64,000 nucleotides of DNA from a candidate division WWE3 bacterium CSP1-7 (GTDB taxonomy: Bacteria > Patescibacteriota > WWE3 > 9FT-COMBO-53-11), in assembly GCA_001443395.1 (NCBI GenBank), contig LDXK01000001.1, positions 32,001 through 96,000 on the forward strand, written 5' to 3'. The translations under genes and the position numbers were made by a program. The first letter of the stretch is position 1; each line of letters begins with the position of its first letter. Below, one piece after another: positions 47,703-51,004 of this stretch. The notes beneath the pieces are model-generated. The model ran no database searches and had not been told where the DNA came from. It saw only the letters and a program-made list of their open reading frames with translations.

Positions 47703-47745
47703 TTTATTTCTTTAAAATGCTAGGTTCGGCGTTAGCCGAGCCGTC
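47700..47745 (+). mobile_element. Type A mini-cassette at rplM-rpsI junction (translated as L13 tail)
   Basis: CATTTTA..TAAAATG-CTA-GGTTCGGC gtta GCCGAGCC-GTC|CATTTT. Confidence 0.8.
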
Positions 47746-48162
47746 CATTTTTACCTTACCGATCATCTCCCCTTCTTCCCCGGGGTACACGAATAGCCGG
47801 GTGATCATTCTACTGCCAAGTTTGTTCTTGGGCAGCATTCCCAACACCGCATGGCGGATAATCTCCTGCGGCCGCCGCTTCCTTAACTCTCCTAGATTCT
47901 CCGATTTTAATCCGCTCGGGTACCCGGAGTAGCGGAAGTAGCGCTTTTGGGTTTCTTTCTTGCCGGTTACCTCAATTCTGGCCGCATTTTTAACGACAAC
48001 GTAATCTCCCTGGTCGAGATAAGGAACCCAATCCGTTTTCTCCTTTCCAATTAGGAGTCGGGCAATTTTGGTCGCCAGGCGACCCAGGACCTGATCTTTG
48101 GCATCGAAGAGGTACCAACTTCGTTCGACTTTATCTTCACTTCGCTTTTGCGGTTTTGGCAT
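47704..48162 (-). CDS. rplM: 50S protein L13
   Basis: LGRLAT, GDYVVV.NA, YSGYPSGLK, GMLPKN. Confidence 0.96.
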   Translation of the reverse strand: MPKPQKRSEDKVERSWYLFDAKDQVLGRLATKIARLLIGKEKTDWVPYLDQGDYVVVKNAARIEVTGKKETQKRYFRYSGYPSGLKSENLGELRKRRPQEIIRHAVLGMLPKNKLGSRMITRLFVYPGEEGEMIGKVKMDGSANAEPSILKK

Positions 48163-49321: not shown

Positions 49322-49333
49322 TATCTTGAATAG

Positions 49334-49376
49334 GACGCCCGCCTCAGGCGGACTAGCTATCCGCTAACGCGAATAG
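49334..49376 (-). mobile_element. Type A mini-cassette at rpsD 3' end
   Basis: CTATTCGC-gtta-GCGGATAG-CTA-GTCCGCC tga GGCGGGC-GTC|CTATTCAAGATAA. Confidence 0.85.
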
Positions 49377-49945
49377 TATTCGATCACCATCTTCTCGTTG
49401 ACCTCGGGACCAATTTCTTCCCGAGCCGGAAAGGCGGCGATCCTGGCAATCATTTCCTTCTTGTCCACTTTTATCCAGGAAGGACGGATCACTTCATCGT
49501 AAATGATTGCACCTTTTTTAGCAAAGGTAATTTTATCACCAACCGCAACCAAAAGCGACGGGATCGTCACTCGCCTTCCATTCACCTTCACCAAACCGTG
49601 GGCCGCCATCTGTCGAGCGTGCGGACGAGTGCTGGCAAAACCGGCACGGTAGAGCACGTTGTCCAACCGCCGTTCCAAAAGCTGGAGCAAGACTTCCCCG
49701 GTTTTTTCTTTACTGCCAAGGGCATTCTTGAAATAGCGTTGGAACTGTCCTTCCCGAACCCCATAGATCCGTTTGGCCTTCTGTTTTTCGCGAAGCTGAA
49801 GACCATACTCGGAAAGGCGACGACGGAAAGCACCGTGCTGACCGGGAGCGGACATCCTCGTTTTGACCGGACAATTGTCGCGGCCGCAGAGCGGAACGCC
49901 TTCGCGCCGGCAGAGTTTGTGGGTGGGACCGGTGTATCTACCCAT
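49364..49945 (-). CDS. rpsD: 30S protein S4
   Basis: SEYGLQLREKQK, LERRLDN, IEYYSR. Confidence 0.97.
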   Translation of the reverse strand: MGRYTGPTHKLCRREGVPLCGRDNCPVKTRMSAPGQHGAFRRRLSEYGLQLREKQKAKRIYGVREGQFQRYFKNALGSKEKTGEVLLQLLERRLDNVLYRAGFASTRPHARQMAAHGLVKVNGRRVTIPSLLVAVGDKITFAKKGAIIYDEVIRPSWIKVDKKEMIARIAAFPAREEIGPEVNEKMVIEYYSR

Positions 49946-49982
49946 TTAAACGCGTCTCCTGTTCTTGGGACGGGGGCCATTG

Positions 49983-50101
49983 GACGGCTCGCCTGCGGCG
50001 AACCTAGCAATGTCCCGCTTACTGTCTCCGAACTGAAATTTTGTCATAGTATTTTCTTTATCCATTACACTCTTCGGCGGTTCTTTGGCCGCGGGCCATT
50101 G
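49983..50101 (-). mobile_element. Type A cassette with recoded rpsK 3' end
   Basis: [11 protein letters not shown] encoded twice (50065-50101, 49946-49982). Confidence 0.9.
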
Positions 50102-50436
50102 TGGGGGATCGGGGTCACATCGGTGATCGCTGTGACTTCCAGCCCACCAACTTTTAAGGCTTTGATCGCGGAATCGCGGCCGGGTCCCGGCCCCTTTACC
50201 AAAACAGAAACTTCTTTAACACCCAATTGACGGGCGGATTTCGCGATGGCCTCGGCGGCTTGAGAAGCGGCAAAGGGAGTCGCCTTTTTGGTTCCTTTAA
50301 AACCGGCCGTCCCCGCCGAGCCCCGCACGATCACTCCCCCGACCTCCTCCCCGATTGTAATCAACGTGTTGTTGAAAGTGCAGGTGATGTGGGCTACTGC
50401 TCTTTCCGGTATTTTGCGTTCTTTCTTTTTTGACAT
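50065..50436 (-). CDS. rpsK: 30S protein S11
   Basis: [28 protein letters not shown]. Confidence 0.97.
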
Positions 50437-50906: not shown

Positions 50907-51004
50907 GACTGTCCTCGCTAAAGCTCGGTTGGACGGTCGCCTTAGGTGACCTAGCAATCTCTCTACACTCGATTGTACAAACATAGTTCTTATAGTCATC
51001 CTTG
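50907..51004 (-). mobile_element. Stacked cassettes at rpmJ 3' end
   Basis: CAAGGATGA duplicated (50996-51004, 50898-50906); internal type A unit plus type C-like unit, each ending GTC|CAA. Confidence 0.75.

Follow-up and report, generated by a model that had tools for sequence, protein, structure and literature searches.

Several described systems share individual traits with the locus analysed here. REP sequences of Escherichia coli carry a conserved GTAG tetranucleotide at their 5' foot. PATEs, which derive from IS200/IS605, possess two subterminal hairpins, insert 3' of a fixed tetra- or pentanucleotide and leave no target duplication. Homology-facilitated illegitimate recombination combines one homologous anchor with a join at microhomology, adding foreign DNA and duplicating recipient sequence. 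When IMEs occupy the 3' ends of genes, one flanking repeat supplies the gene end, and decayed forms (CIMEs) are known, as described in PMC5704250. Here we report a segment at the rpsK/rpsD junction of an uncultivated Patescibacteria genome in which the proposed principle of import is known from such gene-3'-end integrative elements, and the dispersed hairpin form resembles REP or PATE elements. The combination of an imported gene end with a dispersed hairpin that has conserved feet was not found in a title-level literature search on REP/RAYT in Patescibacteria/CPR.

The window, a stretch of 64,000 nucleotides from a candidate division WWE3 genome (G000, a 572-kb assembly), holds rpmJ, rpsM, rpsK, rpsD and rpoA in this order on the minus strand (Table 1). 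The ribosomal protein S11 encoded by rpsK is 99% identical to that of the relative G002. An earlier note had claimed that the last 11 residues of S11 are encoded twice with different synonymous codons. This was confirmed, and its coordinates are correct, with the stranded copy at 49946-49981 and the preceding C at 49982. Seven of the 11 codons and nine of 33 nucleotides differ between the two ends, no residue is changed, and the stop codon is the same. Local alignment extends the full repeat to 43/44 nt (CAATGG...GTGTAATGGATA versus CAATGG...GTTTAAATGGGTA), and the repeat thus passes through the stop codon into the first codons of rpsD. Copy 1 (CAATGG...GTG TAA TGGATA) gives rpsK its used last 11 codons and stop, and also holds a vestigial rpsD-like start, ATGGATA. 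Copy 2 consists of the stranded rpsK end, with the same 11 residues and TAA, followed by the true rpsD start, ATGGGTA, so that its TAA abuts the rpsD ATG at 49945. A segment of 119 nt lies between the two AATGG sites, and 83 nt separate the coding copies. When five random substitutions were placed in the stranded copy, all were synonymous with P = 0.0007, and with ten substitutions this outcome was reached in 0 of 200,000 trials; a chance origin of the recoded identical ends is thereby excluded.

Between the two copies lie a spacer and a hairpin core in which an outer stem (CATTG/CAATG) and an internal loop (CTA/GTC) enclose the inner stem GGTTCGCC-GCA-GGCGAGCC. A 39-codon open reading frame crosses the spacer and core in frame, continues into copy 2 and ends just ahead of the rpsD ATG. 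Its product matched no Pfam family, and it may serve as a translational relay from rpsK to rpsD. Five cores are present within the ribosomal operon stretch.

Table 1. Features of the rpsK/rpsD region and related inserts (positions are those of the window unless a locus or contig is named)
Feature	Position	Strand	Basis or remark
rpsK (ribosomal protein S11), including TAA stop at 50065-50067	50065..50433	-	ORF list and translation
Upstream repeat copy (copy 1), 43 nt	50059..50101	-	Local alignment
Coding end of copy 1	50100-50065	-	AAT GGC CCG CGG CCA AAG AAC CGC CGA AGA GTG TAA
Cassette spacer	50013..50058	-	Contains CAAAATTTCAGTTCGGA, homologous to the gap-site cassette spacer
Hairpin core	49978..50012	-	Best match of model R1 in the genome, 45 bits, E = 1e-8
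Downstream repeat copy (copy 2), 44 nt	49939..49982	-	Local alignment
Coding end of copy 2	49981-49946	-	AAT GGC CCC CGT CCC AAG AAC AGG AGA CGC GTT TAA
AGGAGA Shine-Dalgarno for rpsD, inside Arg codons of copy 2	49955..49960	-	Read from sequence
39-codon ORF	49946..50065	-	ORF list; ATG overlaps the rpsK stop (TAATG)
rpsD (ribosomal protein S4)	49364..49945	-	ORF list
Sister cassette core between rpmJ and rpsM	50927..50959	-	Flanked by CAAGGATGAYTAWAAGA at 51004-50988 and 50906-50890
Start-type core on the strand opposite the genes, directly before the rpsK start codon	50451..50482	+	
Variant core with CGTCCT as 3' box, in the rpsD-rpoA spacer	49329..49361	-	
Telomere-like inserts	L007 (G001), rpsM-rpsK; L008 (G009), rpmJ-rpsM; L157 (G002), orthologue of C1:139990; G000, C1:238642-238666		

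The duplicated end is present in reads as well as in the assembly. The stretch is contained in 20 public runs, four of which (X1, X2, X3 and X9) we examined as Logan contigs. The earlier note would have been contradicted by reads placing the two ends in different strains, and we looked for this signature. A 189-nt unitig in X1 and X3 matches 49937-50125 without differences; starting at the rpsD start, it crosses copy 2, the insert and copy 1 and reaches the body of rpsK. The same path is covered by overlapping shorter unitigs in X2 and X9. Breaks between unitigs fall at 49966/49967 and 50095/50096, the two repeat boundaries, and the depth of the bridging unitig (18.6) is lower than that of its flanks (41.6 and 28), which indicates that other alleles co-occur in the samples. 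One read variant has 1-nt deletions at 49993 and 49997, inside the hairpin. These breaks and unequal depths are what an assembly chimera of two strains could also leave, yet the bridging unitigs join both copies and the same architecture has been assembled independently in four other genomes, and we regard a chimera as having next to no probability. No empty-site joint was listed among the contigs of the four runs, where contigs sharing only 30 nt per side could be missed. At a loose end in X9 (window 50089), a contig shares CACAATGGCCCGCGGC with copy 1 and then diverges, reading ...NGPRRVKKKK; by its sequence this is read as another rpsK-end allele from the same habitat.

The core, which holds a perfect hairpin between GCTAG and CGTCCA, belongs to a repeat family with the format GCTAG - variable complementary stem - CGTCCA. 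The strict pattern GCTAGGT...CGTCCA occurs eight times in the window, where 0.02 were expected, and the 572-kb assembly has 16 occurrences; 35 copies came from a less strict scan for the structure. With a covariance model (R1) built on an alignment of 30 copies (A1), 59 copies were detected in G000 at E <= 0.01. Pairing in A1, which is biased for the inner helix by the criterion used to select copies and unselected for the outer helix, reached 87.5% of cells versus 61.1% in shuffles, and the covariation score was 0.644 versus 0.183, a value attained by 0 of 500 shuffles. The outer helix (CATTG or AAATG with CAATG or CATTT) is 89.3% paired, and four of its five pairs change on both sides. Since the stems vary and yet stay complementary, and the outer helix covaries, the core is predicted to form an outer stem, a 3x3 internal loop (CTA/GTC) and an inner stem-loop. 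A search of Rfam with the region gave no match at the gathering threshold and noise alone at E <= 10.

R1 matches occur in all ten genomes of the family and in none of 124 genomes from 17 other families of the class, a count to be read with the fact that R1 was trained on family sequences and that diverged relatives elsewhere could escape it. Matches to the pattern alone outside the family lack the hairpin and were set aside as chance. The four genomes of the window's genus carry 45, 46, 49 and 25 copies each, and genomes of other genera carry 20, 13, 10, 9, 3 and 1. The feature is thus real and is one instance of a lineage-specific cassette family.

Most cores in G000 lie at gene ends. According to a crude map of ORFs, 42 of 59 copies have a gene terminus close by on their left: in 26 this is an opposite-strand start codon at a distance of about 13-15 nt, and in 16 a same-strand stop codon at 0-40 nt, which puts the gene body on the left (GCTAG) side of the core. 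Measured against a mismatched-pair control, 13 of the 59 copies have flanking direct repeats above the 95th percentile and 10 above the 99th. These repeats are imperfect and vary in length (9, 11, 16-18, 28, 42-44 and 73 nt). Among the 13 above the 95th percentile, 10 have a right copy whose first letters are the CA of CGTCCA, a right junction fixed between CGTC and CA. By eye, the list of 59 copies gave no clear bias of core orientation relative to the direction of replication. At 47704-47750 in the window, the longest rplM ORF passes through a start-type core (C-terminal ...MDGSANAEPSILKK before the stop), and the gene call there may be extended by the repeat. Tandem arrangements also occur: at C2:55071-55150 of G000, two units of a 22-nt flank plus core, with unrelated stems, lie directly upstream of an opposite-strand tRNA gene whose anticodon, by eye, is CAG (Leu), and further two- or three-unit arrays are found at C2:36004, at C1:225866-225948 and in G009 (L118).

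We compared the rpsK site across the ten family genomes. A core and a second rpsK end are present in five (G000, G001, G006, G007 and G008); the site is empty in G002, G003, G004, G005 and G009, and at the seven loci of other families that we read. The second ends encode 11 residues in G001, where the first part of the site is hidden by an assembly gap, NGPRPKKRRRV and a stop in G006, NGPRPQKRRRV and a stop in G007, and 12 residues in G008. Whole inserts could be read in four genomes of four genera and measure 75-143 nt. The hairpin types are discordant with the host tree: the stem of G001 is common to G008, a member of another genus, and not to its congener G000. Core lengths at this site are 27, 27, 27, 30 and 24 nt in the five genomes, all multiples of 3. 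In G000, G008 (40 aa) and G007 (41 aa) the spanning ORF is uninterrupted; a TAG breaks it in G006, and in G001 it could not be read. The multiples of 3, together with an ORF open in three of the four readable genomes, leave room for translation of the stranded end. The two copies in G006 differ at only 2 of 33 nt. Long N runs in G001 (L007, L224) fall exactly at the rpsK and gap 3' ends, as expected if cassettes break short-read assemblies.

Other repeats were seen in the spacers of these operons. An unrelated element of about 90 nt (GAAAAATGATCAATTATCAATTA...CGACYGAAAGGAG) occupies the rpmJ-rpsM and rpsK-rpsD spacers of G002 (L002) and the rpsK-rpsD spacer of G007 (L009). It contains a conserved small ORF, MI[NK]YQL.INKYL...LRLKG.LNG, whose stop lies over the start of the next gene, and brings an AAAGGAG Shine-Dalgarno with it. 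A further type of dispersed repeat in the family consists of telomere-like palindromic inserts, in which runs of TAGGG/TTAGGG heptamers are followed by their complement (Table 1).

The same layout of real end, spacer, hairpin and second end is shared by rpmJ, gap and hrcA. At rpmJ-rpsM, QG and a stop are encoded twice in G000, and KQRQG and a stop twice in G003; the site is empty in G001, G004 and G005, and the downstream copy and spacer of G000 match the empty junction of G001. The gap gene of G000 ends in ...ALVEHVVRVGNLISK and a stop, followed by spacer, core and ...ALVEHVIRVGSLIKA with a second stop. This insert is filled in G000 and empty in six of the seven relatives with a gap match (G003, G004, G005, G006, G007 and G008), the site in G001 being an assembly gap. 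The downstream gap copy runs on into sequence syntenic with the region after the stop in G003; the two gap copies are 16/45 nt apart (pS = 0.70), and by eye no ATG, GTG or TTG leads in frame into the second. Within G000, the rpsK cassette is a sister of the gap cassette in both spacer and core, with one compensatory pair distinguishing the cores; this points to copying or homogenisation within the genome, a process that alone is unable to deliver a foreign rpsK end. At hrcA (C1:165860), LSQLLTELAPSF and a stop are encoded twice in G000 with seven synonymous differences, and G001 is empty. The hrcA repeat of G003 is 73 nt long and encodes 23 codons and the stop twice, with 17 of the 23 codons different and no residue changed; its right junction is displaced upstream by 31 nt, to a CAATTAT microhomology. 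In the rpsD-rpoA spacer of G003 (L003), TATTCGCGGTAGGCGAATA plus core is repeated in tandem as three identical units, which makes three occurrences of the rpsD end YSR and its stop; G000 has a single core, the variant one, at this place (Table 1).

Both copies of these repeat pairs carry the signature of purifying selection. Pooled over eight pairs (rpsK in four genomes, hrcA in two, gap and rpmJ), pS was 0.73 and pN 0.072, a ratio of 0.10. The earlier note had proposed protein-level selection on both copies, and these values bear it out, as does hrcA in G003. It had also taken the downstream copy to be ancestral, and two sets of observations support this. The AGGAG and the close stop/ATG junction that most empty sites display are retained in copy 2: AGGAG lies in the same Arg codons near the rpsD start in G002, G003, G004, G005 and G009, and in G000 it is present in copy 2 only. 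In addition, the downstream copies at rpmJ-rpsM, gap and hrcA are collinear with the empty sites of relatives. We infer that at rpsK copy 2 is the resident, ancestral end and that copy 1 was borne by the cassette from another lineage.

The proposal that a foreign end was imported from a different lineage fared differently at the two genes. At hrcA, the gene bodies of G000 and G002 agree at 494/547 nt (90%) and those of G000 and G003 at 446/547 (82%); the downstream copy follows suit (35/41 versus 30/41), whereas the upstream copy plus spacer reverses the order (38/53 versus 48/53) and the core is identical (25/25) in all three pairs. The downstream copy therefore tracks the host tree and the unit of upstream copy, spacer and core does not, which demonstrates horizontal exchange of this unit against a resident downstream copy. 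The downstream hrcA copy of G002 differs by 4/42 nt (our own count) from the allele that G000 and G003 carry upstream, which suggests a G002-like lineage as the donor. At rpsK, no donor allele of copy 1 was found among the relatives compared. Checked against the single rpsK end of G002, neither copy is close (25/33 for copy 1 and 22/33 for copy 2, versus 298/330 for the gene body), and identity alone does not mark copy 2 as native. S11 relatives from metagenomes proved unusable as filled or empty alleles, with the best at <= 61% identity. The import reading is thus supported for rpsK by analogy, with hrcA in G003, and not rpsK as had been thought, as its clearest case.

On this evidence we consider it probable that the 119-nt rpsK segment is an insertion cassette of the lineage-specific hairpin repeat family that brought a replacement gene end with it. 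The cassette would comprise (i) a replacement rpsK end of 11 codons, the stop and a vestige of the rpsD start, (ii) a spacer of about 45 nt and (iii) a structured core of about 35 nt, CATTG-CTA-G[stem-loop]C-GTC-CAATG. Inserted 33 nt before the original rpsK stop, it would have left rpsK to be completed by the cassette's own end, and the stranded original end would still provide the Shine-Dalgarno of rpsD and the stop/ATG junction. The left join is seamless and in frame and would be homologous, and the right join lies at the 3' foot of the hairpin on short microhomology (CAATGG at rpsK; CAATTAT at hrcA in G003). Two routes would fit such joins: one-sided (homology-facilitated illegitimate) recombination of competence-acquired DNA, with the 3' end set by the hairpin, or the action of a hairpin-specific single-stranded DNA enzyme such as the RAYT-like Y1 HUH protein encoded in G000.

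As regards the first route, G000 has a ComEC match of 177 bits, and PMC10187176 reports competence in Saccharibacteria. As regards the second, the Y1 HUH protein (L138:1297-1944, equal to C1:146028-146675) has 215 aa and the motifs NHFHLLL and Y..NP; it scores 33.8 bits against Pfam Y1_Tnp (cut-off 23) and 56.9 bits against NCBIfam RayT, below the 80-bit cut-off. Homologues were found in 49 of 134 class genomes, including six of nine family relatives, and the repeat in 10 of 134, so that co-distribution was discarded as a non-discriminating test; no homologue was found in G002, which carries 49 repeat copies and is 83% complete. A scan of 1.5 kb on either side of the gene found no cores, in G000 or at the G007 orthologue. 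The link between the HUH gene and the cassettes is weak. Upstream of the gene lie two copies of the hairpin AGGGGTTGAACCCCT, the sole two in the genome, and a lone GCCGTCCAAATG.

Set against the described systems, the cassettes combine traits of several. As with IMEs, ICEs and prophages in gene 3' ends (PMC5704250), the replacement end keeps the target intact, the old end becomes the second direct repeat and tandem accretion is possible. Unlike IMEs and CIMEs, the rpsK insert measures only about 120 nt and lacks a recombinase, the core is found in 59 dispersed copies, gene starts are also replaced in the opposite orientation, repeats range from 9 to 73 nt, and the right junction is set by the hairpin and not by an att core. 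Flanking repeats of the kind by which PMC5704250 defines CIMEs are present at rpsK; a recombination module or its traces and single-site specificity are absent (83 nt between the coding copies; 59 places). The cassettes share with REP/REPIN short dispersed imperfect palindromes outside genes, a 5'-foot tetranucleotide, lineage-specific expansion and a RAYT-like gene in the genome. Their boxes GCTAG and CGTCCA are invariant or nearly so, the tetranucleotide being CTAG and not GTAG, and, unlike in REP/REPIN, the stem varies from copy to copy between constant flanking boxes. No cognate RAYT gene was observed that is bordered by the repeats and shares their distribution, the RAYT-like gene of G000 having no cores within 1.5 kb. 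We know of no REP feature that corresponds to long imperfect flanking repeats carrying gene ends, at gene termini.

PATEs resemble the cassettes in being non-autonomous and dependent on single-stranded DNA hairpins, with a precise end a few nt beyond the hairpin foot; they differ in that the cassettes have one hairpin, flanking direct repeats (above the control's 95th percentile in 13/59) and a variable left boundary. The seamless left join and the right join at CAATGG or CAATTAT fit homology-facilitated illegitimate recombination, except that the illegitimate end of the cassettes always falls at the same position relative to the conserved hairpin, which implies a specific end-defining step. 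The imperfect repeats of variable length (9-73 nt) do not correspond to a classical DDE-type MITE, which has terminal inverted repeats and duplicates a target site of fixed length, and the boxes GCTAG and CGTCCA do not correspond to an integron attC site (RYYYAAC...GTTRRRY); the genome has one PF00589 match. A diversity-generating retroelement was likewise rejected, as the differences, read from the sequence, involve all four bases and are not adenine-specific; no RVT_1/reverse transcriptase match was found in the G000 genome, which is 80% complete.

The main alternative is duplication in place, in which insertion of the hairpin element produced a long target-site-like duplication of the rpsK/rpsD junction, the copies later diverged and copy 2 was kept as the tail of the relay ORF or as the rpsD initiation region. 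The near-identical copies in G006 and the three tandem units of rpsD end plus core in G003 indicate that duplication in place also occurs, and the Shine-Dalgarno inside copy 2, together with the TAATG-started ORF that is open into copy 2 in G000, G008 and G007 and with core lengths in multiples of 3, would give the second copy a function. A constraint from coupling or from the Shine-Dalgarno, however, needs no residue identity over 11 codons of which seven are recoded. The second gap copy, without an in-frame start, nevertheless shows a pS of 0.70, and the gap insert is absent from six of seven relatives although its copies are 16/45 nt apart. Duplication in place cannot create the incongruence at hrcA, and we consider it an unlikely origin of the rpsK segment.

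A decayed integrase-type element, in which a CIME-like attL-attR scar remained after a larger element had integrated site-specifically, its attP had brought the rpsK end and its interior was later deleted, would agree with reports of IMEs at the 3' ends of housekeeping genes, those for ribosomal proteins among them (PMC5704250), and with the one tyrosine recombinase in G000. It appears improbable given a core of about 35 nt present in 59 copies, some of them oppositely oriented at start codons, inserts of only 75-143 nt in the four readable genomes of four genera, repeats from 9 to 73 nt, no adjoining recombinase gene and tandem arrays of short flank plus core. Alternatively, the hairpin could act in the operon as a regulatory RNA or DNA signal, whether as promoter, terminator, processing site or S4-binding leader, beside which the gene-end duplicate is incidental. 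The fixed distance of about 13-15 nt from the start codon in 26/59 copies, one copy flagged as terminator-like on the motif strand and the five cores of the ribosomal operon stretch fit such a signal. Against it, presence varies at orthologous sites between genomes of the same genus, cores occur in both orientations relative to genes, in 15/30 copies the opposite strand has an A-C mismatch in place of a conserved T-G pair, Rfam gives no match, and the recoded duplicate gene ends would be left unexplained; we regard this possibility as very improbable. A sigma-70 promoter reading of the start-type copies was dropped, as a consensus scan does not flag the motif.

The import of a replacement end by a hairpin cassette, which remains our preferred reading, can be placed in a wider and more tentative one. 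Possibly, cassettes of about 50-120 nt are specialised for the ends of essential genes, carry a replacement terminus (the stop-proximal end or, in the other orientation, a leader and start codon) and spread with this terminus between related ultra-small bacteria, their right end being a conserved single-stranded DNA hairpin and their integration proceeding by one-sided recombination of competence DNA or through a RAYT-like HUH enzyme. A bolder extension would have the stranded rpsK end still translated as the tail of the relay ORF, preserving translational coupling in the operon.

The cassettes create spurious small ORFs, lengthen gene calls and break assemblies. Their hairpin, with its fixed 3' junction, offers a concrete test substrate for the RAYT-like proteins that are common in the class. 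If the reading is true, a selfish element too small for any gene settles in essential, coupled ribosomal operons by bringing with it the piece that it displaces. Each recoded duplicate gene end would then mark a transfer, and from such ends the exchange of DNA among lineages of uncultivated Patescibacteria could be read.
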